Notes under the pieces: model-generated
Told to the model about the DNA's origin: nothing
Seen by the model: the letters and a program-made list of their open reading frames with translations, nothing else
Databases searched by the model: none
NCBI GenBank assembly: GCA_001794055.1
Contig: MGJB01000012.1
Span: forward strand, 1,124-65,123
Source of the DNA: Candidatus Yanofskybacteria bacterium RIFCSPHIGHO2_01_FULL_41_26
GTDB lineage: Bacteria; Patescibacteriota; Minisyncoccia; 2-02-FULL-40-12; GWA2-44-9
Direction of reading: 5' to 3'
DNA: 64,000 nucleotides
Shown here: positions 8,301-47,338 of the stretch, in pieces
Position numbering within the stretch: the first letter of the stretch is position 1
Layout of the letters: the number at the start of each line of letters is the position of its first letter
Made by a program: the position numbers and the translations under genes

Positions 8301-8913
8301 TGGTTGCCTCCTTGCTTGTCGCAATGTCATCCTGATCAATCCTGACAATATGAACCTGGCCCGCCAAAGTAAATTTTATCCCGACAATAATTTGTTTCTT
8401 TGAATCGGCTTTAGACGGTTCTGAAAAAGGAGAAGTGCTTAAATCATAGCCATAACTTAAGGCACAATTCCCATTTTGATCCAAAAGCCATGATCGTAAA
8501 AAATCTTCCCTGATATCCTGTCCGGTCCGCGGATCACGGACTGTCCGCCATTGAACATAGGCGAATGCATCGGTTGCTTGTTGGACTCTCCCAAGAACCT
8601 TTGCTTCTTGCTGATTGTGATATTTTAAATTGGAAAAATTCCTATCTAAACCACCCTCTTCCACCGATTTGTTTTCACAAGCTCGTTCAGAAACAATGGC
8701 CACTTGCCGATAATAAACCCTGACAAATTCGTTTGTATCATTTGGATTTTGGTAGTCAACCACTCGGCCCAGAAAACCTGTTTTACAATCATTAACCCTA
8801 AATTCCAATTCTTTGGATAAAACCACGTTGAAATTTTTCACATCGGGAGGAGAATTAACCAAAGGACCACTAGTAACCAATAAAACAAGGGGAACCGCTA
8901 ATGTCAGAAGCAT
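8287..8913 (-). CDS. Secreted hypothetical protein
   Basis: Hydrophobic N-terminus MLLTLAVPLVLLVTSGP (start trimmed from 9000 to the internal Met). No recognisable domain. Co-directional with the lipoprotein gene and overlaps its start by ~14 nt. Confidence 0.4.
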   Translation of the reverse strand: MLLTLAVPLVLLVTSGPLVNSPPDVKNFNVVLSKELEFRVNDCKTGFLGRVVDYQNPNDTNEFVRVYYRQVAIVSERACENKSVEEGGLDRNFSNLKYHNQQEAKVLGRVQQATDAFAYVQWRTVRDPRTGQDIREDFLRSWLLDQNGNCALSYGYDLSTSPFSEPSKADSKKQIIVGIKFTLAGQVHIVRIDQDDIATSKEATNEKK

Positions 8914-9018: not shown

Positions 9019-12000
9019 TTAGAAATTGAAACCGATACGAACATTGAAAGACCATTTGTCCGGAGCAAATTTGGTTTTTGCCCATTCAAAGTTAAGAGGC
9101 AGAAATATGTTAGTCTGCAGTCCAAAACCATATGACCATTCTTTGCGAGTTGGGAACAGATCATCGCTGAACTTGGCCAATGCATAATCAACAAACAGTA
9201 CTCCGCGAACATTAAACGGAATGGCACTTAGTATCGCCACATCAGCAACAGGGAAACGCAGTTCCGCGCTCCCATAGCCGACCTGATTACCGGCAACGCT
9301 GAAGTAAGGATAGTTCCTCAAAGTATTGTTACCGCCCAGAAACATCACAGAATCACCATTGGGACGATTGCTGGTAAGACCGGCGGCACGAACCGCAACC
9401 AATGAACTGCCGGAAAGACGGATGTATCTGCGGGCATCAATCTGCGCCGTCAGATATGAAGCTGAATTTTTATTCAAGCCCAGTCCGTATTCCACTTGAG
9501 CCCGCATGGCGTCGCCATGCAAAGGTAAAGGTCCAAGCGTATTGTTAGAATACAGAACAGTATCATGCACAAATGCCGTGATAAAACCAACGTTGGTCTG
9601 ACCGCTGGAGGCCTTGAAAAATTCATAGAACTGGCGATCTATTTCGGGAAGATAATCCCCTAAATAAGCAACATCCGCATCTGTTAAAGGCAGAAAGTAC
9701 GTCCGTTTCCGCGGTCTAACTCCAAACTCAACACGATTCCACTTATTGAACGGATATTCGGTAAGAAATGTCGCGCTTGTTTCCTCGGCCCAAGTGCTGT
9801 TGAGAACGAACTGTTTGTAATCGCCGTTTGGATATGGATAGCGTGAATACTGACCCTGAAAATTATACAATGGATAGTATAACGGATATTGGGAGTGATT
9901 GAAGTTCACTGTCAACCCCCAACGCCGGGACAGATCCTGATATGTGTAGTCGGTGTATTGAAAGTCGCCATATTTGATATATAGTCCGGCATGCGTCCGA
10001 TTAGCAAACACATCTTGAACTACAAATTGAGAGCTCGCAAATAATCCCCAGTAAGTGCTCGTACCAATACTAACGTTTGACCCATAGAATTTCCAACGGG
10101 CTGGCGGTTTTTGAGGCCTTGCCAATTGATGCTGATCAAGCTGTTCACTGACTGCTTCCTGACTGCGAAATGCCAATTCCATGTTTTCGTTTTTGTTATC
10201 AATGACCGATGTCCGAAGAGATTCTTTCATCCTAAGATCAAATAACTCAAAGTTTGAATATACATAACTTCGGAATTGGTCATCTTCCAAATAGGCTGAA
10301 TATACAACACGATCGTTTTCACCGGAAACAAATTTCGGAGTAAAAACACCTCCATAATATTCGGTCCACTGTTTATTGGTGCGAGTGGCCAAATCTAGAG
10401 TATATAAATTCCAAATCTGGTCTTTTTCGTCGGATGTATAGACAAGCTGACGTCCATCAGACGACCAGCTCGGCGAATTGTCATTCCAACGACCGTAAGT
10501 AAGTTGCTCCTTGTTGCCTGTTGCCAAGTCCAACAAAAACAATTTCTGGAAACCGCCGTCAAACGCCACATACGCCAACTCAGTTCCGCCAGGAGACACC
10601 CGCGGTGCGCTGTTAAACACGCCGCCATTGGTCAAATTTTTCAACTCGTGCGTTTCAAGATTCATTGAATACACATCGCGCTGAATATTTTTGGCTGCCG
10701 AAAAATACAACACCTTGCCATCAGCACTGAAATTGGGCGAGAATGCCTGGTCAAGAGGAAGCTCCACTTCCTGCAGGAATTTGCCGGTGTTCGCATCGAG
10801 AATGAACAAGGCGTGATCTTTATTCTTTCTGGCAAAAAATGAAATCTTGCTGACGCTTGGAACACGCATCAGCTTGGCAAGTTCCTTTTTATCAGCGCCT
10901 TTAACCTTAGCAACCCATTCTGGATCCTGCCACCAATCCAAGTCCGAACCGTTGAACGGCCAGACATTTAGTTCTTGAGCAATTATGTACTCGTAATGTT
11001 TGGGCGGCATAAATTTCGTTAAGATTTTCAGAGGAGGATCTTGAACATTAACCTTACGGCCGAACATCCCCCTTTTTTTTCGATTCGCCTGCGACACATA
11101 TGGAGGATCATCCCGCGGTAGCATGCGCGCCACCGCCAGAACGATGCCATTCTTGGGATTGAAAGTCAGAAAAGCTACGAAGTTATCATCGGGCGAAACT
11201 TCGGGTGAAGTAAGGGGGTACGGGTAGGGCTGTCTAATAATCTGACGACCTTTAATACTGCTGGTTTCCTGGTACGGCTTGGGCCGCTCCAAAGAATCTT
11301 TTGCATATTTATCGGCCCAATAATTGCGGTGAGCCCGGTCAAATGCTTCAGCGTTATAGAATTCTCCCTTCGAAATGTCGGCCAAAAGTTCACTGAATTT
11401 CTGGCCGCGCTGGCTGAAAATTTTCACTATTTGATCAGCTACTGTTTTCTCGCCGTATTTGGCTTCAAGAAACATGAAAAGCATGGCTCCAAGTGAATAA
11501 GGATTGGCCTGACCCTGCGACAACATTTCCAACGTAGGCAATCCCATTTCCGGATTTTTGACATTAGCCGCCGCCAAACGCTGTTCCATTTTACGAATAT
11601 CGTCCCGCGAATAAGGTGCGTACTTATTAGCCAAATAATCTGCGATGGCTTCATACAGCCATGGCTCAATAGATTCACCACCCGCACGACCGATAAAACT
11701 CCAGCCGACCATATCAAACTGAAAAATATGTGCGAGTTCATGGGTATAGATTGTCCGATTCAAGACTGGCAAAAAATCCGGCTTAACCACAAGGATCATA
11801 TCGGTATCCGGCAAAAGACGAGAACCGCGTGGAAATGCATAAGCGCCCACACCCTCGGGCATAAACATTTCGCCGGCCAAATGAAGCGCTTCAAACTGAC
11901 TATGCGTACGTGACACGACTACTATTGGCCTCTTTTTCAACTGATGATTAAGCCTAAAACTCAAATATTCGCAAGAGCCTTCTAGGTGCGCCACCAAGTT

Positions 12001-12186
12001 GGTGAAATGATTCTGGATATCTTTGTCACTAATCTCAAGCGAGAAATAAAAATCAAAATGCTCTGACTGATAAAAATTCCACGTGGTTTTTTCCCAAATC
12101 ACTTGATTTTTTCCAAACTGGGCATAAGCCGTCAATGGCATCAACAAAAACAACAAAGCGAGAAAAACAGTGAGTTTTCTGGTCAT
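9019..12186 (-). CDS. Secreted tripartite protein: HExxH metallopeptidase-like domain, TolB/PD40 beta-propeller, C-terminal Omp85/BamA-like beta-barrel
   Basis: 1055 aa. Signal peptide MTRKLTVFLALLFLLMPLTAYAQ, HELAHIF (HExxH), PD40-like repeats (LAYVAFDGG, SPSWSSDGRQLVYTSD), C-terminal barrel ending ...WSFNVRIGFNF (terminal aromatic). Confidence 0.55.
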   Translation of the reverse strand: MTRKLTVFLALLFLLMPLTAYAQFGKNQVIWEKTTWNFYQSEHFDFYFSLEISDKDIQNHFTNLVAHLEGSCEYLSFRLNHQLKKRPIVVVSRTHSQFEALHLAGEMFMPEGVGAYAFPRGSRLLPDTDMILVVKPDFLPVLNRTIYTHELAHIFQFDMVGWSFIGRAGGESIEPWLYEAIADYLANKYAPYSRDDIRKMEQRLAAANVKNPEMGLPTLEMLSQGQANPYSLGAMLFMFLEAKYGEKTVADQIVKIFSQRGQKFSELLADISKGEFYNAEAFDRAHRNYWADKYAKDSLERPKPYQETSSIKGRQIIRQPYPYPLTSPEVSPDDNFVAFLTFNPKNGIVLAVARMLPRDDPPYVSQANRKKRGMFGRKVNVQDPPLKILTKFMPPKHYEYIIAQELNVWPFNGSDLDWWQDPEWVAKVKGADKKELAKLMRVPSVSKISFFARKNKDHALFILDANTGKFLQEVELPLDQAFSPNFSADGKVLYFSAAKNIQRDVYSMNLETHELKNLTNGGVFNSAPRVSPGGTELAYVAFDGGFQKLFLLDLATGNKEQLTYGRWNDNSPSWSSDGRQLVYTSDEKDQIWNLYTLDLATRTNKQWTEYYGGVFTPKFVSGENDRVVYSAYLEDDQFRSYVYSNFELFDLRMKESLRTSVIDNKNENMELAFRSQEAVSEQLDQHQLARPQKPPARWKFYGSNVSIGTSTYWGLFASSQFVVQDVFANRTHAGLYIKYGDFQYTDYTYQDLSRRWGLTVNFNHSQYPLYYPLYNFQGQYSRYPYPNGDYKQFVLNSTWAEETSATFLTEYPFNKWNRVEFGVRPRKRTYFLPLTDADVAYLGDYLPEIDRQFYEFFKASSGQTNVGFITAFVHDTVLYSNNTLGPLPLHGDAMRAQVEYGLGLNKNSASYLTAQIDARRYIRLSGSSLVAVRAAGLTSNRPNGDSVMFLGGNNTLRNYPYFSVAGNQVGYGSAELRFPVADVAILSAIPFNVRGVLFVDYALAKFSDDLFPTRKEWSYGFGLQTNIFLPLNFEWAKTKFAPDKWSFNVRIGFNF

Positions 12187-12269
12187 TTCTTTTCCTAATT
12201 GACAAAGAACCGAAATCTATCGCAAAGCTACACGTTTTATAAACAAAGGTCAATCGTGTCAAATTACTC

Positions 12270-12638
12270 CTATGGAGAAACTGTAATCGTTCCCGTCATC
12301 GATGGATGGGGGGGACAATGATAATTAAACGTCCCTACAGTATTGAAAGTAAAACTGTATATTTCGTTCTGGCCCAAAAGCGGGCTTGAAAGGCCGCCAT
12401 CTCCCGTCACTGTATGAGAAACGGAGTCCTTATTAGTCCAAACCACCGTGTCACCCTTTCTGATTGTTATTAATGACTGATTAAAAGCAAAGCCTTTAAT
12501 TACAACGGTTATTGGAGTAGGTGTGGGGGTTAGAGTAGGTGTGGGAGTCTGATGGCTTGGGCCACTCTTTTTTGTCATATAAAAAATTCCCGCAACTACC
12601 ACAACGACTAAAACAAAACTAAGAATAATTTTGTTCAT
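12270..12638 (-). CDS. Cupredoxin (plastocyanin/azurin-like blue copper) domain protein, membrane-anchored
   Basis: N-terminal TM segment, TPTPTLTPTPTP linker, and type-1 Cu ligands H...HCPPHPSM (His, Cys, His, Met). Confidence 0.7.
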   Translation of the reverse strand: MNKIILSFVLVVVVVAGIFYMTKKSGPSHQTPTPTLTPTPTPITVVIKGFAFNQSLITIRKGDTVVWTNKDSVSHTVTGDGGLSSPLLGQNEIYSFTFNTVGTFNYHCPPHPSMTGTITVSP

Positions 12639-12785
12639 AATATTTAACTATAAACTTTCTCTCATGACAGAGCAACCCTTTCAATGGGACAATAAGTGTA
12701 GCGCGTCGAAGCCCTGTTAGACGTTCTGGTGAGATGCCGGTATGTTTTTTTATTGTTTTAGATTTTGCCATAGATTGAATAATAT

Positions 12786-13520
12786 TTATTTTTTAATCAT
12801 CAAAACTTGGGTGGCTTCCATTGGTTGTAGTTTTTCTGGTTTGTCTGCCATAAATTCATCGAATGCTGTCCAGACGCCTTTACATTGACCATAGTCGTGA
12901 GACAAGATCCTGCCGCCAGACAACATACGCGGATAAAAGAATTCCAAGGCCTTTTTAGTAACGCTGTAAAGATCTACATCAAGGTGGACGAAGGAAAACC
13001 TCAAATCTTTGATAGCGTCTGCGGTATTGGGAAACAGTCCGGGGTAGATTTTCACAGCTGGATATTTAGAAAGTCTATCTCTAACTTCTTTTTCGCTGGC
13101 AGTGAACATTTCTTTTTTGAATCGTCCGTCGCGATTGCTTACTTGATCAGGCAAACCTTCAAAAGTATCGAAAAGATGTAGAGGAGTATTTCCTTTAATT
13201 TCGGAGATTGCTTTTGCGGACGCACCGCGAAAAACTCCTACTTCAGCATATGCCCCTCCATGATCGACCATGATGCGAGACTGTTCCCAAATATTAAGTA
13301 ACTCGCCCGGGCTAAAAAGAACAGGCTTCCTGCCGGTAAACAAGCTGACAAACACAGGGCCTTCTTCCTCGCTATAAATTTTAGACACTAATTTAAACGC
13401 CTTCTCTTCAAGGGGATTGCGTTTATAATATTTCAACTTGCCAAGTTCAATATGCGACATAATACGCTTTATTAACATTCCCCAACGTGTATTTGAAATT
13501 TGATTGTCGATTCCTGCCAT
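12786..13520 (-). CDS. TylF/MycF-family (macrocin O-methyltransferase-like) class I SAM methyltransferase
   Basis: GAYAEVGVFRGASA (SAM-binding), FDTFEGLP, HLDVDLYSVTKKALEFFYPRMLSGGRILSHDY, the characteristic TylF C-terminal block. Confidence 0.65.
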   Translation of the reverse strand: MAGIDNQISNTRWGMLIKRIMSHIELGKLKYYKRNPLEEKAFKLVSKIYSEEEGPVFVSLFTGRKPVLFSPGELLNIWEQSRIMVDHGGAYAEVGVFRGASAKAISEIKGNTPLHLFDTFEGLPDQVSNRDGRFKKEMFTASEKEVRDRLSKYPAVKIYPGLFPNTADAIKDLRFSFVHLDVDLYSVTKKALEFFYPRMLSGGRILSHDYGQCKGVWTAFDEFMADKPEKLQPMEATQVLMIKK

Positions 13521-18131: not shown

Positions 18132-19961
18132 TTAAAAGAGATAGAGTAAAAACCACTTTCTTTTTTTAGGTTCTTTTTTCTCGTTAATGGACATTCCTTT
18201 TGTCTGAACCGTAATATTAAGCACAAAATCAACGTCAATGAAATCGTCTAGAATTGGCGTAAGGGTTAGAACAACTTCTTTGCTGTCTTTTGTCAGAAAA
18301 TGTTTCAATTCATCCTCGCCGATATCAACCCACCCCAATTCCGGATTGGCCGATGTTTGAGAATTGGAATTTTTAGCCTTCGTTTCGGTCTTGGCTTTTG
18401 GCATTACCTGCTGAACATATAAAACATCGGTCTTATAGTTCATGGCCTCATTCAGTTGTTTGATAAAATCCTCAACAGAAGTTCCATTTGTCAAACTTCT
18501 CTTATCTGTAAACCTGCTACCCCCTTGGATCACAACAACAATATTGGGAAAAACTCCCGGACCAATTCTCTCCATAAAATCTTCCGGAACTTTAATCGGA
18601 ACGCTTATTTTTCTAAGGGCGCCGGAAGAAATTTCTTCCAAAATCATATCCGCATATACTGTTTCTCCCGGAGACGCCTTGTTTTCAGATAAAAAGGCTG
18701 CCTTTTTAATCCAAACTTTAAAATTCTTAACAAAATCTACCCGAACCCTTACGTCTCCAATCTTGCGGTTAAGTTTTTTACCCTTAAGACTCTCCAAAAC
18801 AAGATCTACCCTATCGAACAGTTCCTGAAAAGGACTTTTGGGATCTTTCTGATCTTTTTGAATTCTGACTGGTATAATATTTTTCAGGAAAATTTCAGAC
18901 TCATCTTGAATACTTATCCTCACCTGATAAGAAACGGGCAACAAGCTTAAATCGCCAAGCACTTGCTCCGCCCAAATGCCGGGTAATTTGTTTATGAGCA
19001 TTCTAGCCATAGGGCTTGGGATTACTTCTTCTTTTAAAGTCGCCTGCCCATTACCCAGATGAAGTTCTGTAATTAGCGGTGTGCCGGGTGCTGTCATGCC
19101 GATTATTCCTGCCATCTCAAACGCACCGTCAACAAGCATCGCTCCTTCTGTATTCAGATAACAGCCAGGAAGCTTATAAGAGGCAAAGGGGGTTTGAATG
19201 GTATCAGCCACCGCCACGTGAACAAAAGGATAATTTACCATTCCCGTACCAAAAAGAGGGTGGCCAAAAATATAAATTTTATCGTCGTCTCTCCATGTTA
19301 CAGTACCAGAAGCGCCAATGGAAATTAAACCTCTGGCCAGAAGAACCGATACCATTGAACCCGGCTTAAGTTCACTGTCCGCCAACTGGTAACATTTACC
19401 AGGCGAAACGCCTTGGGCCGCCAAATTATTGATTTTGGGAAAGAGCATAAGATTAAAAAATTCCATGCCCCCGATGTTGATCTTATCGGGCATCTGATTA
19501 GAAAGACTTATAGCCGCCTCATACCCGCCAAACCGGGCTCCAAGCATGTATTCGGCAGGAGTCAGGAGACAATTCATGCCCCCTTCAATAAAAGAACCTA
19601 TACGGTAACTCAAAGCGCCAACTAAGATTCCGTTCTTAACACAATCATCCAAATCATTACAACCAACGAATATAGGGCTGCCACTCATACCAGATATGGC
19701 ACCTATTTTTTCCAAGGTCGTATCCATCGGGCCTCCGGAAATTCTCGCTAAAATTAGACTGCTGCCCATATTGTCAATTGTGTTTCCAAGAACAACATCA
19801 AACGGTTCCGGTTCAACACCCTTGAAAACAGAGAAGCCAATTGCTTTTGTTCCAGGATGAAGATCCTTCAGTTGGAGGATCTTCGGTTTGTAAGCCCAAG
19901 CATCAACGGCAAAAAACATTAGCACAACAAAAACAGAGAGTAGCCTCATTAAACCTTTCAT
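18132..19961 (-). CDS. Secreted S55 (SpoIVB-like) serine peptidase family protein
   Basis: Signal peptide MKGLMRLLSVFVVLMFFAVDAWA. GAISGMSGSPIF matches the SpoIVB GMSGSP catalytic-Ser motif. IYIFGHPLFGTG His-containing block. Confidence 0.5.
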   Translation of the reverse strand: MKGLMRLLSVFVVLMFFAVDAWAYKPKILQLKDLHPGTKAIGFSVFKGVEPEPFDVVLGNTIDNMGSSLILARISGGPMDTTLEKIGAISGMSGSPIFVGCNDLDDCVKNGILVGALSYRIGSFIEGGMNCLLTPAEYMLGARFGGYEAAISLSNQMPDKINIGGMEFFNLMLFPKINNLAAQGVSPGKCYQLADSELKPGSMVSVLLARGLISIGASGTVTWRDDDKIYIFGHPLFGTGMVNYPFVHVAVADTIQTPFASYKLPGCYLNTEGAMLVDGAFEMAGIIGMTAPGTPLITELHLGNGQATLKEEVIPSPMARMLINKLPGIWAEQVLGDLSLLPVSYQVRISIQDESEIFLKNIIPVRIQKDQKDPKSPFQELFDRVDLVLESLKGKKLNRKIGDVRVRVDFVKNFKVWIKKAAFLSENKASPGETVYADMILEEISSGALRKISVPIKVPEDFMERIGPGVFPNIVVVIQGGSRFTDKRSLTNGTSVEDFIKQLNEAMNYKTDVLYVQQVMPKAKTETKAKNSNSQTSANPELGWVDIGEDELKHFLTKDSKEVVLTLTPILDDFIDVDFVLNITVQTKGMSINEKKEPKKRKWFLLYLF

Positions 19962-20049
19962 TTCATCCTCTTTTCAAAGAACTGAAATAATCTGTGGCAA
20001 GTATAGGGTAAACGAATAAAACTCGCAATGGGCCAAAGAAACAGATACT

Positions 20050-21033
20050 CTAAACAGTCAGTCCTGAATCTTTTTCTTCGACACGTTGGACGATACCGAG
20101 CTGTTTTAGTTTTTTATTATACTTATTGATAGCAAAAGCTTCGAAAGAACGGGGGTGAAATTCCAATTCATTATCGTTAAAAACAACCCTCCCCCCCGAT
20201 TCATAAGTCGCGGGATTATTTTTTATTCTTTTATGTTGATAAGCCTTAAAACATTTCTCAAGCCAATCCCCTGTTTTAGAATTTAAAATAAATTCTAAAA
20301 ATTTTGTTATGAAATTAATGACGAGGTCCGACCTTGGGACTTCTTTAAGGTCGGACCTCAAAGAATTATAAATATACTTCTCGAGCCAAATGTTTTCGGC
20401 GTAAAAACGGCCAAAAATTCCATCTCTAGCAAAAACAGGCTTGAGATTAGCGTAAGTCTGGGCATTAAATAAACTCTCATGCCTAATATTCATTTTCCCG
20501 TCGGTGATATAGTGATTAAAACAAAATTTATCAGGCGCTATTTTTTCATATCTGGTCCTGCGGACACCAAAAAGAGAGGCAACTAAACTTAAAAACATTC
20601 TACAAGTATAGAGACGACCCGATTTCGCAATTGCAAGAACGTCAAAATCGCTATCTTCGTCGGTATTATTTATGGCCATTGAACCGGAAACTAAAACCGC
20701 TCTCAAAAAAGGCACGGCCTGGAACCATTTTGCTGTTTTCAAAAGTTTCTTCCATTTTTTAACAGCAATCGCTTCTCTTTCGATTCTTAATTTATACAAA
20801 GCATCTCTGTCAGGTAAAAAATAAAAACCATCCTTGAAACCGATATCGCCGGTTGAAGCCAAATCATCCAAGTTCTCCCTAATTTGGGCTTGAATTGCCC
20901 CGAGATCCGACCTCAAAGAACTAAGCCGTTCCGGATTTATCAAATATTTATTAATCTCCGGCACAGTCAATGGAAAATCAAAAATATCGTAGTAGACAAG
21001 AGTAGCAATTATTGAATCTCGCAGGTACCTCAT
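20050..21033 (-). CDS. Nucleotidyltransferase (Pol-beta-like NTase fold) domain protein, function unknown
   Basis: GSMAINNTDEDSDFDVLAI is the GS-x9-DxD NTase signature. Start trimmed to MRYLRD so that the terminator hairpin at 21061-21076 lies upstream of the gene. Confidence 0.45.
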   Translation of the reverse strand: MRYLRDSIIATLVYYDIFDFPLTVPEINKYLINPERLSSLRSDLGAIQAQIRENLDDLASTGDIGFKDGFYFLPDRDALYKLRIEREAIAVKKWKKLLKTAKWFQAVPFLRAVLVSGSMAINNTDEDSDFDVLAIAKSGRLYTCRMFLSLVASLFGVRRTRYEKIAPDKFCFNHYITDGKMNIRHESLFNAQTYANLKPVFARDGIFGRFYAENIWLEKYIYNSLRSDLKEVPRSDLVINFITKFLEFILNSKTGDWLEKCFKAYQHKRIKNNPATYESGGRVVFNDNELEFHPRSFEAFAINKYNKKLKQLGIVQRVEEKDSGLTV

Positions 21034-21083
21034 ATGACAAAGGTACCCAAAAATACAAAAGCTCGCAATCGCGAGCTGGGGAA

Positions 21084-21470
21084 CTAAGTCTTGCAGGGAT
21101 TCGGACAATCGCAGTGATCGGGCTTGCAGTGCACCTTACAGCGCTTTCCTTCCTCGTAATTCTCGCTGGGCTTTCCATTCTCACACTTCCTCATGCAGGT
21201 ACATCCAAGCTTATTGGGGTCGGTCGCGCCGACCTTCGGATTCTTGGGGTTCGGGCGCTCGCAGTGCTTATCGCCTTCGGGCTCCTGCGGTGGTCTTTGT
21301 TCCTGACGAGAAACAGTTGTCGTTGACGTCAGTTTGGCCCCTTTGGCCTTGTTCAGAAAGCAGATCTCGTCTTGAGTTTTGGCTTGAACCTGATCATGAA
21401 CTGAAGAATAAAACTATACCGCCAACAAAAGAACTGCAGAAACTACCACAACAGTAAAAGTTCTGAACAT
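21084..21470 (-). pseudogene. Interrupted small secreted Cys-rich protein gene (single in-frame TAG)
   Basis: Minus strand reads TTGACA-17-TATGTT promoter, AAAAAGGA SD, ATG, MFRTFTVVVVSAVLLLAV, then TAG (plus 21414-21416), then in frame FYSSVHDQ...KLGCTCMRKCENGKPSENYEEGKRCKVHCKPDHCDCPNPCKT*. The hairpin GCUCGCGAUUGCGAGC plus U-tract terminator follows. Confidence 0.4.
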
Positions 21471-30673: not shown

Positions 30674-32032
30674 ATGAATCAAGCCGTATTAAAAAAACAC
30701 GCATCCACATTTCCCAAAATACCTGGCGTTTATATTTTCAAAAATTCGAATAATAAATTGTTATACATAGGCAAAGCTGCCAGTTTAAAAAGCAGAATTA
30801 GTTCATACCTAAAAACAAATGATTTCAGGATTAAAAAAATGCTTGAATTGGCTCGGTCGCTTGGATTTATTAGTACTCCATCAGAAATTGAAGCCTTAAT
30901 TCTGGAATCTCAATTAATCAAAAAATTCCAACCCGCGTTCAATATAACGCTTCGTGATGACAAACAGTATTTTTATGTGGTTTTCACGAAAGAAAAATTT
31001 CCCAAAATTTTTATTTCACATCAACCGCACATATTTAAATATCTAAATATTGAAGTATCGGATTCTGTTGGCCCATTCACTGACGGAGGTGCCCTAAAAA
31101 CAGCTCTGCGTGTTCTGCGCTCAATATTCCCTTATTGCACCTGCAAACAAACTCATCACAATTTCTGTTTGAATTACCATATTGATAAATGTCTCGGATT
31201 TTGTTGTTTAAAAAAACCAAGCCCGGAGACCCAAGGTCGAACCTTAGATTCATATCTGAAAAACATAGAAGCAATCAAAGACATTTTGAGCGGAAAAAAG
31301 AGTTCGCTTATTAAAAAACTTGAAAAAGAAATGAGGAAATCAGCTCAAAATGGTAATTTAGAAAAAGCCATTGAATTGAGAAAAAAAATATCAAACCTAA
31401 AGAGGATTTTCGAAAACGCTAAAATAATAAAAAGCTTCAAAATCTTAGAAGCTCACCATTCAGACTTAGAATCATTATTAAAAATTCAAAAACCAATAAC
31501 CAGAATTGAAGGTTATGATGTTTCCAATATCCAGGGTGCCCATGCCGTCGGTTCCATGGTGACATTTGTTCATGGCCAACCGGACAAAAATTTCTACCGC
31601 AAATTCAAAATTAAAAAAACCAACAAAAAAGAGGAGGGCGATTTATTTCACGATCGTAGTAAAAACACAACTTACGGCGGAGACACAGGAATGTTAAAAG
31701 AAATACTTGAAAGACGCTTTAAACATGAGGAATGGCCATTCCCTGATTTAGTATTGATAGATGGAGGGAAAGCCCAACTGAACGTTGCGCGTTCAGTAAT
31801 TTCCAATTATTATACCACACTTTTAAAAAAACAAAGGGCACCTTTATTAATTGCATTGGCTAAAAATAAAAAACATGTCGGTGAAAAAATATTTATTTCC
31901 GGAAGAAAAAATCCGCTTCCATTAACCAAACTCTCCTCTTCCGACAGAAATCTCCTCCTCCACATAGATTCCGAAGCCCACCGGTTTGCGATAGGATATT
32001 ACAGAAGACTTCACAGAAAATTGTTTAAGTAG
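30674..32032 (+). CDS. uvrC: UvrC-like excinuclease subunit lacking C-terminal HhH domain
   Basis: GIY-YIG N-terminal (PGVYIFKNSNNKLLYIGKAASLKSRISSY...ILESQLIKKFQPAFNITLRDDK), UVR-like helix, RNase-H-like endonuclease block IEGYDVSNIQGAHAVGSMV and DSEAHRFAIGYYRR. Ends at 452 aa. Confidence 0.75.
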   Translation: MNQAVLKKHASTFPKIPGVYIFKNSNNKLLYIGKAASLKSRISSYLKTNDFRIKKMLELARSLGFISTPSEIEALILESQLIKKFQPAFNITLRDDKQYFYVVFTKEKFPKIFISHQPHIFKYLNIEVSDSVGPFTDGGALKTALRVLRSIFPYCTCKQTHHNFCLNYHIDKCLGFCCLKKPSPETQGRTLDSYLKNIEAIKDILSGKKSSLIKKLEKEMRKSAQNGNLEKAIELRKKISNLKRIFENAKIIKSFKILEAHHSDLESLLKIQKPITRIEGYDVSNIQGAHAVGSMVTFVHGQPDKNFYRKFKIKKTNKKEEGDLFHDRSKNTTYGGDTGMLKEILERRFKHEEWPFPDLVLIDGGKAQLNVARSVISNYYTTLLKKQRAPLLIALAKNKKHVGEKIFISGRKNPLPLTKLSSSDRNLLLHIDSEAHRFAIGYYRRLHRKLFK

Positions 32033-33029
32033 GTTTCGCCTTATCACATTCGCCAATCACAATCTTTCTCAATTTATAAGCATTACCGTGAGACAAAAGA
32101 CCTCGATAAGAATTTATTGTTTCTGGTTTTGAACTTTCTTTAATTCTTTTAAACATTCTTCTTTTGGTAGCCGTCCTCAAAACCCTATGATCCAGAAAAT
32201 GCACCCAACCCAGAAAATCCACTCCCGAAGAAAGAGTTTTGATGAATACTTTGTCGGGATGAATATTGAGCTTCAAATGTTCTGAAAGAAAATCCGCTAT
32301 TTTGGGCAATAATTCCTCAAGCCATAATTTATCCTGTGACATAATCACAAAATCATCAGCATAACGGATATAGTATCTCGCCTTGAGTTTGTGTTTAATA
32401 AATTGATCAAATTTATTCATATAAATATTCACGAACAGTTGAGAAGTTAAATTGCCCAATGGCAGTCCTGTTCCGACTCTTACTGAAAAACTATCTATAA
32501 TAACCCAGAGAAGGAACAAGATTTTTTCATCCGATATATAACTTTTTAAGACTGCTTTCAAAGTATCGTGGTTCACGGATGCAAAGAACTTACGAATATC
32601 ACACTTCAAAACCCAAATCGTCTTTTTGTTATTCTCTGAAATTTTATAAAAAAACTTACGAAATTTATCCATTGCCTTGTAGGTGGCTTTGTCATACCGG
32701 CAGGAATATGAGTCAGAAATAAATGTCCTATCAAAAAATGGGTACAAAAACCTGTATAGTGCCCTGTGAAGAACCCTGTCTCGAACAGAGGCCTTGTGTA
32801 TATTTCTCGGTTTTGGGTCTGATATTTTAAAAGCTTCATAGCCATAATGTCGACATGACATCACAACTAAATCATTATGAAGATTCATAATATTAGCCAT
32901 CAGATCCCGCTCAAATTCCTGGACATCTTTGCGTTTTTTCTTGCCTATGATAAACTCCTTCCACGCCTCAAGCAGATTATCAATACTAACTATATCGTTA
33001 TATTTATGAGTGAATTTAATTCTAGACAT
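32025..33029 (-). CDS. Diversity-generating retroelement reverse transcriptase
   Basis: RT motifs: LGNLTSQLFVNIYM (DGR-type I/LGxxxSQ motif 4 in place of group-II QGxxxSP), YADDFVIM (YxDD), 334 aa. Confidence 0.85.
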   Translation of the reverse strand: MSRIKFTHKYNDIVSIDNLLEAWKEFIIGKKKRKDVQEFERDLMANIMNLHNDLVVMSCRHYGYEAFKISDPKPRNIHKASVRDRVLHRALYRFLYPFFDRTFISDSYSCRYDKATYKAMDKFRKFFYKISENNKKTIWVLKCDIRKFFASVNHDTLKAVLKSYISDEKILFLLWVIIDSFSVRVGTGLPLGNLTSQLFVNIYMNKFDQFIKHKLKARYYIRYADDFVIMSQDKLWLEELLPKIADFLSEHLKLNIHPDKVFIKTLSSGVDFLGWVHFLDHRVLRTATKRRMFKRIKESSKPETINSYRGLLSHGNAYKLRKIVIGECDKAKPT

Positions 33030-33087
33030 AATCCTTTAAGCCCCCCCCCGGCTTTTACCGGTACTTCAAAAAGTTAAAGCCGCTTAT

Positions 33088-33429
33088 TTGATTTGGTTTA
33101 AATTTTATCAGATCATACCGAAAGCCCATAGACACACGCTTGGCCAACAGATAGACACGCTTTGGATAGAATTGATAAAGACATTGGCCACGGCGACATT
33201 TCTTCAAAGGCAGGAAAAACTGCCCTATGTCCGTTTGGCTATCCAGAAAGTTGATACGCTAAAAGTGCTTTTGATGATTCTTTGGGAAGCCGGCTCGCTT
33301 CAAAACGAACAATACATTTCTCTTTCAATACCCATCGAAGAGATCGGTAAAAATCTCGGCGGTTGGAGTGGCCAGCTTGAAAAACAAAACTCCCCCACCT
33401 CGCCAAACGGCAAAGCGGGGAAGAAATAA
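33088..33429 (+). CDS. avd: Avd-like accessory (four-helix-bundle) protein of DGR
   Basis: 113 aa, TTG start. IPKAHRHTLGQQI...LAIQKVDTLKVLLMILWEAG...EEIGKNLGGW...GKAGKK resembles the Avd / TIGR02436 four-helix-bundle family. Divergent from the RT. Confidence 0.65.
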   Translation: MIWFKFYQIIPKAHRHTLGQQIDTLWIELIKTLATATFLQRQEKLPYVRLAIQKVDTLKVLLMILWEAGSLQNEQYISLSIPIEEIGKNLGGWSGQLEKQNSPTSPNGKAGKK

Positions 33430-33554
33430 AGATGGTTGCGAGCACGGCCGAGGGGTTGTTGGCGTTACGATCGTTGTCGAGCCAGTTGTAGTTCCAGTTC
33501 CACGAACCGTCGTTGTTGAAGTAGAGGTAAAGCATGTAACGATTGCCGTTCGGG
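33426..33554 (-). repeat. DGR template repeat (TR)
   Basis: 129 bp aligned to VR1 (33915-34043). All 24 mismatches fall on TR adenines of the minus strand. TR frame is Asn(AAY)-rich: SPNGNRYMLYLYFNNDGSWNWNYNWLDNDRNANNPSAV. Confidence 0.8.
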
Positions 33555-33699
33555 CTGCGCAGTATTGTATAGCATGCCTTCATGGTCATCACTGCCCATC
33601 GAGTACTCTCCGGGCTGTATCGCATTCGGTATCATAATACCATAGCATCCCATACCAAGTATCTTCATTTTTTGAAGTTTCTGCATGCACCACACTATT

Positions 33700-33790
33700 T
33701 CAAACGCATGGTCGAAAATATTCTGGATGCATGGATACTGGCTTCGGTAGCGGAAAACACATGGTCGCCCGCATATTCACCTATCGCCGA
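33700..33790 (-). repeat. Conserved ~85-nt element, copy 1 (between VR1 terminator and TR)
   Basis: Minus strand GGCGATAGGTGAATATGCGGG...TTTTCCGCTACCGAAGCCAGTATCCATGCATCCAGA. A near-copy lies at 40795-40880 downstream of the second target. Confidence 0.45.
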
Positions 33791-33814
33791 AAACATATTA
33801 ACACAACGTATTTA

Positions 33815-33861
33815 AATAAAAAACAAATCCTGTCGGGAGACACAGCGTCTCCCGACAGGAT
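33815..33861 (-). terminator. Perfect 15-bp hairpin plus U-tract downstream of VR1
   Basis: atcctgtcgggagac-acagc-gtctcccgacaggat (33827-33861), followed on the minus strand by UUGUUUUUUAUUU, ~50 nt after the target stop. Confidence 0.55.
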
Positions 33862-33903
33862 AAGGGCTAAGTTACAAAGGGCTAGAGCTAACACCCTAAG
33901 AAC

Positions 33904-34584
33904 TTAGTTCTGACTTGCGAGCACGGCCGAGGGGTCGCCGGCGCTACGACCGCGGCCGAGCCAGTCGCAGCCCCAGCCCCACGAACCGCCGCCGTCGAAG
34001 CAGAGGCAAAGCACGCAACGATCGCCGTCCGGGCTGCGCAGTACGACGCCGTCGAAGAAAATGAACTGGATGTCGCCATTCACTCTCTCCTTGAAGCGCG
34101 CCGGGAGTTGTTCGCGGTTCTCCCAGAACGCCTTGAAGGCGTTCTCATCCAGACGGATGCGGCCGTCGGACTTGAGACGCTTGACACGTACCTCGCCGGT
34201 CATGACTGACTCGCCTCGCTTGAGACAAGTGACGAGTTGGACTTTGTCGAGGCCTAACTCGGCCAGCGCGGCCGAACGGAGGTCTCTCTCCTCCTCGCCC
34301 TCCAGACCGTCACCGCTGGCCGGTCCGCGCCATACGCTCCAACCGGCGCCGATGAATGTGGCGGGGTTGAACAGCTTGGAACGGTCAATCGGGATGACGT
34401 GAGGTTTGGCAGAAACGTCGACAGCGATCGGTTTGACCACCGCTCCGCCCCGAAGAATTGTCAGCAACCCCCTGACCAGAGCATTGTTTTCGGCGAAGTT
34501 GTTCAGCTCCGCCGGAGTTCCACCCTCTGCGTCCCATGTAGCACACACCCTGTCCGCGAGCCCAACGCTAAATTCTGACTTCAT
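33904..34584 (-). CDS. DGR target protein 1 (variable repeat VR1 at C-terminus, 33915-34043)
   Basis: 226 aa, GC-rich. C-terminal VLRSPDGDRCVLCLCFDGGGSWGWGCDWLGRGRSAGDPSAVLASQN is encoded by VR1. Start codon uncertain (SD spacing poor). Confidence 0.75.
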   Translation of the reverse strand: MKSEFSVGLADRVCATWDAEGGTPAELNNFAENNALVRGLLTILRGGAVVKPIAVDVSAKPHVIPIDRSKLFNPATFIGAGWSVWRGPASGDGLEGEEERDLRSAALAELGLDKVQLVTCLKRGESVMTGEVRVKRLKSDGRIRLDENAFKAFWENREQLPARFKERVNGDIQFIFFDGVVLRSPDGDRCVLCLCFDGGGSWGWGCDWLGRGRSAGDPSAVLASQN

Positions 34585-40655: not shown

Positions 40656-40794
40656 TAGATTGGCGAACAGTAAAAAGAAAAAATTTTATTAAAACCTACC
40701 CGTAAACCCGGAGAGACCGTTTTATTTCGATTAGAAGCGCTGTATATACCAAGTTTCTTTTGTTTTTGAGTTTCACATATACCACGCTATCCCA

Positions 40795-40880
40795 AACCGT
40801 AGTCAGAGATACTCTGGGTTATATGGATACTGGGGTTCGGTAGCGGGAAACCTTAATCTCCCACATATTCACCTATAGCC
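40795..40880 (-). repeat. Conserved ~85-nt element, copy 2 (downstream of DGR-target paralogue)
   Basis: Minus strand GGCTATAGGTGAATATGTGGG...TTTCCCGCTACCGAACCCCAGTATCCATATAACCCAGA. Shares two identical blocks of 10-11 and ~13 nt with copy 1, separated by a diverged spacer. Confidence 0.45.
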
Positions 40881-40900
40881 TATTTTATAGTTTATCAGAA

Positions 40901-40925
40901 ATTGAAAAGACCCGCACGATGCGGG
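40901..40925 (-). terminator. Intrinsic terminator downstream of target-2 gene
   Basis: Minus strand GGCCCGCAUCGUGCGGGUCUUUUCAAUUUC: hairpin plus U-tract. Confidence 0.45.
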
Positions 40926-41027
40926 CCTTGAAGATGTACGCACACCTTCGAAGCTTTGCGGCGAAACGCCGCTCCAAGGACCAAGGGTCCAAGGTCAAAT
41001 GCTGACCAAGGAGCCAAGTTCCAAGGA

Positions 41028-41735
41028 CTAACTTGCGAGCACCGCCGCAGGATTGTTGCCGTGGAAGCGGTAGCCCAGCCAGCGGTAGCCCCAGCGCCAC
41101 GCACCGTCGTCCCAGAACAGAAACCGGACACACAGGCTGCCGTTGGAGTTGCGGTAGATGGTCCCCCAAAAGAATACGTACTTGCCTTTCCATTCCTCTG
41201 GGATGAGCTCCGGGTGAGCCAGCAGGTAGTCCAGGACATTGGCGTTGAGCACGGGCTCGGACGCCAGCTCCTTACGGAGCTTGTTACCCTCAATGCACTT
41301 GCTGTCCATCTGGTTTGGCGAGAGGTGGAGCTTGATCTTGGACAGGTCCAGTTTGAACTGGCCACCCTTTTTGTGATTCTCCACTCCTCTCCAGCCCTGC
41401 GGCAGGAAGGGGTCGGCGTCGCAGTCGATCACATGTTGGACCAGTCCAACTCTCGCAGCCCCGCAAAGGGCTTGCCGAACGAGTTGTAGCAAGTCCTTCC
41501 GTCCGGCCAGTGCCCGAATTTGTCCGGGTGTGAAGCCGAGCCGAACGAGGACATCCTCGAGTTCCAGTGCGGCCCACACGCTTGGGTCCGTTTTGTGAAC
41601 CCTGGCTGTGGTTGCCTGGCTCCACGAAGACGCCTTCCTCAAGACCTCGAAGTCGTGAGGGGTCACGCCCAACCGGTCTAAAATCTCAACGGTTGCGTGA
41701 AGTTCCGAATGCGGCATTTTGATCAGATCTCCCAT
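41028..41735 (-). CDS. DGR-target paralogue 2 with VR-like C-terminus (VR2, 41033-41158)
   Basis: 235 aa from MGDLIKM, preceded by AAAGGAGA SD. GC-rich. C-terminal IYRNSNGSLCVRFLFWDDGAWRWGYRWLGYRFHGNNPAAVLAS is homologous to the TR/VR1 fold. Nucleotide similarity to the TR is interrupted by non-adenine differences. Confidence 0.65.
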   Translation of the reverse strand: MGDLIKMPHSELHATVEILDRLGVTPHDFEVLRKASSWSQATTARVHKTDPSVWAALELEDVLVRLGFTPGQIRALAGRKDLLQLVRQALCGAARVGLVQHVIDCDADPFLPQGWRGVENHKKGGQFKLDLSKIKLHLSPNQMDSKCIEGNKLRKELASEPVLNANVLDYLLAHPELIPEEWKGKYVFFWGTIYRNSNGSLCVRFLFWDDGAWRWGYRWLGYRFHGNNPAAVLAS

Positions 41736-41985
41736 GATTGGATCTCCTTTCGTCGTTTTTGCTCCCCCTTGTTCAAGAGGTCGCATACGCCAGCGGGCTT
41801 CCGGGTACTTCCGGATTTGCCATAGCAGACAAAGGCCGAATAAATCAGCCACTCTATGCTAAGGCAAATCTCGCAAATTATATGAATAATCAAAGAACTA
41901 TAATATGTTTTAATTATACTCCTTTCCCATAAAAAGTCAAGTTATAAAAGTGGCTTAATTCAAGGTTTTTGATATACTTTCTCTT

Positions 41986-45609: not shown

Positions 45610-45716
45610 AGCGAATGCCTTATTCCAAAGAAGAACGTTCGGAGGCTACCCCGGGCCGAGAGAGAGCAAAAACCCAGCAGGGTTTTATGCGGTCTTCGTG
45701 GGATAGGGCATTCGCG
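45610..45716. repeat. Structured intergenic repeat, copy A (just 3' of recA)
   Basis: 77-nt core ccaaagaagaacgttcggaggctaccccgggccgagagagagcaaaaacccagcagggttttatgcggtcttcgtggg enclosed by a 12-bp stem cgaatgccttat/atagggcattcg. Confidence 0.6.
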
Positions 45717-47232: not shown

Positions 47233-47338
47233 GGGGCGAGGCCTGATCCAAAGAAGAACGTTCGGAGGCTACCCCGGGCCGAGAGAGAGCAAAAATTCAG
47301 CATAATTTTATGCGGTCTTCGTGGGTCAGGTCTCGCCC
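47233..47338. repeat. Structured intergenic repeat, copy B (just 3' of ftsK)
   Basis: Same 77-nt core, in direct orientation to copy A. Differs only in an internal hairpin (AAAAAUUCAGCAUAAUUUU versus AAAAACCCAGCAGGGUUUU, compensatory). Enclosed by a different outer stem gggcgaggcctgatc/gtcaggtctcgccc. Confidence 0.6.

Follow-up and report, generated by a model that had tools for sequence, protein, structure and literature searches.

The mechanism of DGRs, their action on remote targets and the frequent occurrence of truncated or inactivated DGRs are established (PMC5758913, PMC8144416, PMC8867640). In the CPR, 90% of DGRs have been assigned to the 'B3' architecture subtype (Wu et al. 2018, PMC5758913), in which the target gene is followed by a template repeat (TR), an avd gene on the opposite strand and the RT (PMC5758913). 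Remote DGR targets have been described in Treponema denticola, Legionella and Trichodesmium (PMC5758913, PMC8867640). Of the candidate DGRs in GenBank, more than half were set aside because they were truncated, inactivated or for other reasons not usable (PMC5758913). Structured RNA motifs adjoining RT genes have also been reported, and RT-7 is one of the RT-1 to RT-19 motifs that were suggested to act perhaps in DGRs (Weinberg et al. 2017, PMC5737381).

The window analyzed here is the whole stretch of 64,000 nucleotides (64 kb), a CPR (Patescibacteria) chromosome of about 42% GC that carries the housekeeping genes uvrC, RNase J, trpS, ychF, rpsF, ssb, recA, ftsK, and groEL. It holds an intact DGR, termed type A, and a second target gene with its own variable region (VR), termed VR2 (Table 1). 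The cassettes compared in this study have the 'B3' order in common. They resemble described DGRs in having VR/TR pairs that differ only at TR adenines, a C-terminal VR followed by a GC-rich, IMH-like end and hairpins, an Avd-like gene, an RT with LGNLTSQ and YADD motifs, a chromosomal location, and a Patescibacteria host. The VR2 locus differs from 'B3' cassettes because it is devoid of TR, avd, and RT, and its template type was found only in other genomes.

Table 1. Features of the type-A DGR and of the VR2 locus (positions in the window; paired coordinates are given in reading direction)
Feature	Position	Strand	Remarks
Promoter-like site TTGACT-16-TATAAT	41940..41913	−	11/12 match; left edge of the homology to intact type-B cassettes
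SD AAAGGAGA	41750..41743	−	8 nt 5' of ATG 41735
VR2 target gene	41735..41028	−	Intact ORF, 235 aa; C-terminal end ...WDDGAWRWGYRWLGYRFHGNNPAAVLAS, then stop
VR2	41155..41033	−	123 nt, at the C-terminal end of the gene; homologous to TR (33564..33436) and VR1 by repeat search and alignment
GC-rich VR2 3' end CCTGCGGCGGTGCTCGCAA	41051..41033	−	IMH-like; identical in type-B VRs and TRs
GC hairpin GCGGCG-TTT-CGCCGC	40972..40958	−	About 60 nt past VR2; kept in type-B cassettes
Intrinsic-terminator-like hairpin and T-run	40929..40907	−	Closes the VR2 target gene; same element in L009
Retained 5' part of spacer, helices 1-5	40882..40745	−	38/38 base pairs intact
Truncation breakpoint	40744..40745		Homology to intact cassettes ends after ...AAACTTGGTATA
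Intact local type-A DGR	34584..32025	−	Not the source of VR2
Type-A target gene	34584..33904	−	Carries VR1, 34043..33915
Type-A structured spacer	33790..33565	−	
Type-A TR	33564..33436	−	
Hairpin and T-run after type-A TR	33423..33390	−	
Type-A avd (bAvd-like)	33088..33429	+	
Type-A RT	33029..32025	−	RVT_1 match, 2.3e-23; LGNLTSQ and YADD motifs

The genome with VR2 thus contains a DGR-type RT and an Avd, both of which come from the type-A cassette. VR1 mismatched the local TR at 24 positions, and all of these (24/24) were TR adenines. Twenty-three of the 24 TR-to-VR1 substitutions were A>G and one was A>C, whereas only about 55-65% were A>G in type-B VRs. The VR1 consensus was identical in six assemblies from different samples (L001-L004, L006, and L007), and this intact DGR therefore appeared without visible turnover. 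VR2 was identical in 8/8 loci of independent assemblies, but these loci had been retrieved by an exact match to the VR2 protein, and VR1 was identical in the 6/6 of them that cover it, so that the comparison does not discriminate a static region from a variable one.

The initial annotation had described the last ~125 nt of the gene as homologous to TR and VR1, with divergence at non-adenine positions and an indel. Repeat families and alignment confirmed this description, as VR2 showed 17-18 mismatches to the local TR at adenines, 25-28 at non-adenine positions, and a 3-nt indel. An active remote target of the type-A DGR would differ from the local TR only at adenines; VR2 does not, and it is therefore not such a target. 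It resembles known remote targets as a VR-bearing paralogue located kilobases from a DGR of the same genome. However, what defines a remote target is that it differs from the TR of the DGR at adenines alone, and VR2 fails this definition for the sole TR in the window.

The template that fits VR2 was found in another genome. The type-B TR of locus L031 aligned with VR2 over 123 nt without gaps, and the differences were located at TR adenines in 16/16 cases (the TR has 33 adenines), with 0/90 non-adenine positions changed (hypergeometric P=2.5e-11). The substitutions comprised 9 A>G, 4 A>C, and 3 A>T. VR2 and this TR therefore show the adenine-only relationship of a DGR variable region to its template repeat. 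The TRs of L009 and L048 had 2 and 3 non-adenine mismatches to VR2, respectively. Example segments of VR2 with positions derived from non-adenines are ACCGCAACTCCAACGGCARCCTGTRTGTCCGGTWTCTGTWCTGGRACGACGGTGCGTGG...CCTGCGGCGGTGCTCGCAAC. Immediately after the common end CCTGCGGCGGTGCTCGCAA, VRs continue with GT and TRs with CY, and metagenome contigs were scanned for type-B TRs as exact matches to this end followed by a base other than G. The scan returned 23 loci, of which 4 were real type-B TRs, and two of these four (L046 and L049) were identical copies of the L009 type. VR2 is matched exactly by a type-B TR at non-adenine positions; therefore, this comparison identifies it as a genuine variable region that a DGR wrote from a second, type-B template type and not as a drifted local copy. 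The possibility that the target was diversified from a different TR, which the initial annotation had put forward, was thus supported, whereas the decay from the local TR that it implied was not supported, because VR2 never belonged to that TR and is undecayed relative to its true template type.

Intact type-B cassettes consist of a promoter, the target gene with a C-terminal VR, a terminator, a ~370-nt structured spacer, the TR, avd on the opposite strand, and the RT, in this order. In the window, such a cassette is represented by no more than its front ~1.2 kb, at 41940..40745 between ychF and trpS, with the promoter, the target gene and VR2, the terminator, and the first two domains of the VR–TR spacer. 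This piece was 84.5% identical to L009 9799-11001 (blastn) and also aligned to L031, L048, L057, and L058. The breakpoint is located ~84 nt short of the expected TR start, and the trpS stop codon follows 90 nt further (40655). The locus lacks spacer helices 6-8, TR, avd, and RT. Beyond the breakpoint, 5/27 pairs of helices 6-8 could be formed, which is the chance level, and the 90 nt past the breakpoint showed no similarity above shuffled controls to any cassette part, including the post-TR and post-RT sequences. The retained spacer was 91-94% identical to intact cassettes, which is no worse than the intact cassettes among themselves, and the coding sequence just upstream of the VR was 77-88% identical, below the retained spacer. 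The proposal of a former target that escaped from mutagenesis agreed with this truncation ~84 nt upstream of the TR start and with a window that holds no type-B TR.

The cognate TR was sought in the sequences available. Using the target proteins, RT, and Avd as tblastn queries, no RT, avd, or TR beyond the type-A set was found in the 64-kb window, and a search with the repeat 3'-end pattern (<=3 mismatches) together with a repeat search on 28-56 kb returned only VR1, TR, and VR2. The sole TR in the window is thus the type-A one. In sample Ga0209541, which holds a 49-kb contig of the VR2 population, the exact-match scan for the type-B TR 3' end gave a single match, and this came from another related genome (L009). 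A scan for the VR/TR 3' end in a collection of genomes from species other than that of the window gave chance matches and one family member from Saccharibacteria. The search for RT homologues returned thousands of CPR RTs, none of which could be attributed to the MAG of the window, and the closest protein relatives, P0002 and P0004, were not from the samples of the window. The absence of the cognate TR accordingly covers 64 kb of the genome and one exact-match scan of assembled metagenomes.

The idea that L009 represents the absent second DGR of the window genome was rejected, as L009 has its own GroEL (79% nucleotide identity), orthologous flanks, and a TR with two non-adenine mismatches to VR2. 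It carries orthologues of the window genes at 16-29 kb. Its type-B cassette (9587-12850) corresponds to a clean 3.2-kb insertion or deletion relative to window 20013-20037, between the orthologues of 20050..21108 and 18132..19961. Protein P0008, which is 80% identical to the VR2 protein, is encoded within a complete cassette of target, TR, reversed avd, and RT in L009-L012.

The VR2 target gene is intact and retains its expression signals. The equivalent of its promoter-like site in L009 is TTGACT-17-TATAGT at 9799. The public annotation (OGM98605.1 and OGN21469.1) places the start at GTG 41852 and predicts 274 aa. However, all homologues have MGDLI as their N-terminus and begin at the position of ATG 41735, which is preceded by a good SD. 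Therefore, ATG 41735 is taken as the true start, and the annotated N-terminal 39 residues (41736-41852) are probably not translated. The exact protein is present in NCBI MAGs named Candidatus Yanofskybacteria. Downstream of VR2, a run of CCTTGG repeats lies between VR2 and the GC hairpin, within the part that aligned to type-B cassettes, and the 3' arm of this hairpin is also able to pair with the VR 3' end (DNA fold z=-5.2). The stop-codon context that had been considered the same in both target genes was partly similar; VR2 ends with LAS-TAG and the VR1 gene is two codons longer (LASQN-TAA), and the 'tga' noted on the + strand at VR1 does not form a stop codon when the coding strand is read.

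A GC-rich gene with a good SD and a terminator had also been annotated, and all three properties held, with a GC content of 0.59 vs 0.42 for the window. Target genes have a GC content of 0.59-0.62 and a third-position GC of 0.73, whereas other genes of the genome range from 0.35 to 0.43, and the RT of the same cassette has 0.35, unlike the GC-rich target gene. At third positions of the two target genes of the window, A and T are both depleted. The bias was also found in the homologues of L009 (overall GC) and of L013 and L015 (third-position GC), and it is therefore not simply a sign of recent transfer. Elsewhere in the window, an 84-nt direct repeat (92% identical) occurs at 45624-45707 and 47247-47330, immediately following recA and ftsK, two genes of the − strand. 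The repeat holds a terminator-like hairpin (CCCTGCTGGG followed by a T-run, − strand) and had no Rfam match at the gathering threshold.

The VR2 protein belongs to a family of about 2000 proteins, nearly all of which are from Patescibacteria. In the family alignment, the first ~190 aa are conserved and the C-terminal ~45 residues are hypervariable at fixed positions, which is the pattern of a DGR target with a conserved scaffold. The non-VR part of the gene showed a pN/pS of about 0.1-0.25, and the VR part showed about 21 non-synonymous vs 0-3 synonymous differences; judged from these substitutions, the scaffold of the protein is under purifying selection. Alignment of the two target proteins of the window, which the initial annotation had suggested, gave 31% identity over 117 aa (E=2e-11). 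An AlphaFold2 model of the VR2 protein, built on a 50-sequence alignment, reached a pLDDT of 93.7; in it, a helical domain at the N-terminus (residues ~9-90) is followed by a mixed alpha/beta domain at the C-terminus, the last strands of which carry the VR. The VR domain had no Pfam match and no significant structural match, which would place the protein provisionally among the 'unknown VR' classes of CPR DGRs and not in a named CLec or Ig class. The gene product would be a ligand-binding protein. For the N-terminal helical domain (residues ~20-95, 41450-41675, − strand), a family profile searched against PDB matched BurrH (4cj9), a TALE-like repeat protein, with a summed E=1.5e-11, although no single stretch was significant and a single-sequence query did not reproduce the match. 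This weak lead may be a sign of short helical repeats (…LGVTPHDF… / …LGFTPGQI…).

The spacer preceding the TR is itself a conserved structured element. The ~225 nt 5' of the TR had a mean identity of 87% across six cassettes (the type-A cassette of the window, L009, L031, L048, L057, and L058), the RTs of which were identical down to about 66%. Outside the window, the copies are located at L009 10864-11085, L031 588-809, L048 228-449 (−), L057 3253-3471, and L058 3261-3479; the type-A copy and the partial copy of the VR2 locus are given in Table 1. Among type-B cassettes, the spacer was 91-96% identical, vs 77-88% for the adjacent coding sequence. RNAalifold analysis of the six spacers gave 65 pairs in 8 helices, with 10 pairs changed on both sides and 97.4% of cells paired, in a structure that was derived from the same alignment of only six sequences. 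None of 500 shuffles (0/500) reached the observed values, and slid controls yielded only 0-3 such pairs. The strongest helix (columns 138-149 with 215-226), which contains four covarying pairs, directly adjoins the TR on the 5' side, and a hairpin followed by a T-run lies directly 3' of the TR. A sigma-70-like 'TR promoter' (TTGGTA-16-TATGAT, 33658..33631) was not relied on because its -35 falls inside helix 6, which is supported by covariation.

The spacer resembles RT-7 as a structured non-coding element adjoining RT genes, and the spacer at VR2 has the first hairpin (CCAGAGU...CAAGG...AGxGUG) in common with it in sequence and shape, although the similarity is weak. The Rfam model RT-7 (RF03028) scored 22.4 bits (E=0.055) at window 40672-40818 and 23.5 bits (E=0.003) in L009. 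In contrast, the gathering score of this model is 116.8 and only the 5' hairpin, ~45/191 model positions, aligns, so the spacer is not a member by the Rfam criterion. The pre-TR region probably belongs to the DGR template RNA or takes part in the recognition of this RNA, and it may represent an undescribed DGR RNA element.

Related genomes showed how the family gene and the cassettes are distributed. A gene of this family is located directly beside ychF in four related genomes, at L013 10001-10708, L053 3924-4622, L060 6001-6705, and window 41028-41735. An adjacent TR or RT was absent in 3/3 of those with known downstream sequence (window, L013, and L060). The VRs of the window and L053 differed at 19/33 TR-adenine positions and at 2/90 others, and their VR part had 0 synonymous differences vs a pS of 0.45 in the rest of the gene. 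As these differences are adenine-biased and without synonymous VR changes, the comparison indicates that type-B homing into the ychF locus went on well after the split of the two lineages. L015 contains two same-strand copies (8313-8900 and 10001-10717) that are ~1.1 kb apart. Their VRs are identical over 123 nt and their downstream sequences are identical up to the terminator, each spacer is truncated differently and at points other than that of the window, and no RT occurs within 20 kb. By its sequence, L015 is another decayed cassette, which was duplicated after freezing. Complete DGR cassettes occur at different sites, namely near groEL (L009), at uvrC-secG (window), at rpoC-ftsK (L058), and at rnc-rpsP (L057).

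Together, these data make it probable that VR2 is an orphaned, frozen DGR target whose gene is still intact and expressible. In an intact type-B cassette, an error-prone RT would copy the TR RNA, adenines would be randomized, and the cDNA would overwrite the VR. At the VR2 locus, the final third of the spacer together with the TR, avd, and the RT would have been lost, with the first ~1.2 kb of the cassette left behind. VR2 would then keep the last variant, which its adenine-only differences show to have been written by a type-B TR. Rewriting should no longer be possible, since a matching TR is unavailable and the local one differs too much for homing into this site. The gene probably still makes a binding protein, now of fixed specificity, because the promoter, SD, ORF, and terminator are kept. 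The truncated locus originated either by in-situ deletion of the TR-avd-RT half or by the arrival of the gene plus half-spacer by recombination from a full cassette. Two findings speak against an orphaned state: VR2 and the half-spacer are undecayed, without any change at non-adenine positions, which fits recent loss or continued use, and the homing at the ychF locus after the lineage split also fits a remote TR.

Other explanations of VR2 differ widely in probability. The reading that VR2 is a present or past target of the local type-A TR, which has since drifted by ordinary mutation, is practically untenable. A distance of 7 kb separates VR2 from the local DGR, the two repeats agree in their final 10 nt (GTGCTCGCAA), and the protein fold and family are shared with the VR1 gene. 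Nevertheless, the non-adenine mismatches and the indel rule out the local TR as the template, the type-B TR has no such mismatch, and an exact match to another template cannot arise by drift. A live remote target, written in trans by a type-B TR that lies in the genome outside the window and uses either an avd and RT of its own or the local RT and Avd, is unlikely but is the main rival. DGRs can act on non-adjacent targets (PMC5758913), and the fit of VR2 to a type-B TR is perfect, with no sign of decay. The ychF-adjacent gene has no adjacent TR in the window, L013, or L060, yet the syntenic VRs of the window and L053 differ in the adenine-only style, and the retained half-spacer is as conserved as in intact cassettes. 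On the other side, the locus keeps a truncated stretch of the spacer of its cassette, which speaks for the loss of an adjacent TR and not for a designed remote target, and the exact-match scan of the 3' end gave no further type-B TR in the metagenome that contains the VR2 population. One form of this reading, in which a stand-alone type-B TR is served in trans by the single type-A RT/Avd and the half-spacer is a cis element marking the homing site, would be a long shot. If it were true, one RT would run two orthogonal template/target pairs, and the VR–TR spacer would be a target-site element and not only a part of the template RNA.

It is also improbable that VR2 never had a TR in this genome and that the 3' part of the gene with the half-spacer was imported by recombination, with the variant made in the donor. 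Consistent with import, the fragment is close to L009 (84.5%) and to L054/L055 (83-85% over the 300 nt before the VR), vs 65-79% for housekeeping genes, and it is closer to those cassettes than to the syntenic ychF-adjacent copies of L013/L060 (73-74%). The third-position GC of the gene (0.73 vs 0.35-0.43 in the host) and the presence of type-A and type-B cassettes at differing sites of related genomes, as clean insertions or deletions, point in the same direction. However, a family gene at the ychF site in four genomes argues for long residence, the high third-position GC is family-wide and not particular to the VR2 copy, and no recombination breakpoint was identified inside the gene. Import would give the same present-day state, an orphan VR, as the loss of the cassette half that is favored here.

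As a probable orphaned target, VR2 is comparable with inactivated or truncated DGRs, in which essential parts are lost and a VR is left without a usable TR. It differs from them in that its target gene is complete and keeps the expression signals, its lost template can be rebuilt exactly with the help of relatives, and the truncation was mapped within a few nucleotides inside a conserved structured spacer. The VR2 locus is a well-resolved further example of an inactivated cassette with an intact frozen target, beside an intact DGR of a non-interchangeable type, and not a new kind of system. It provides a clean natural example of what remains after the loss of a DGR. An orphan VR can readily be mistaken for a diverged target of the closest DGR or for a decayed, pseudogene-like copy; a search for a TR at another site that agrees with the VR at every non-adenine position tells these cases apart. 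The pre-TR element with its covariation support and the odd composition of the target genes are the parts most deserving of re-inspection by specialists. The pre-TR structure is a candidate for a functional component of the DGR RNA in 'B3' cassettes of the CPR and is of perhaps wider use. Genomes of the Patescibacteria group to which VR2 belongs have hosted at least two non-interchangeable DGR template types; the cassettes come and go at varied chromosomal sites, and the target-family gene persists beside ychF.
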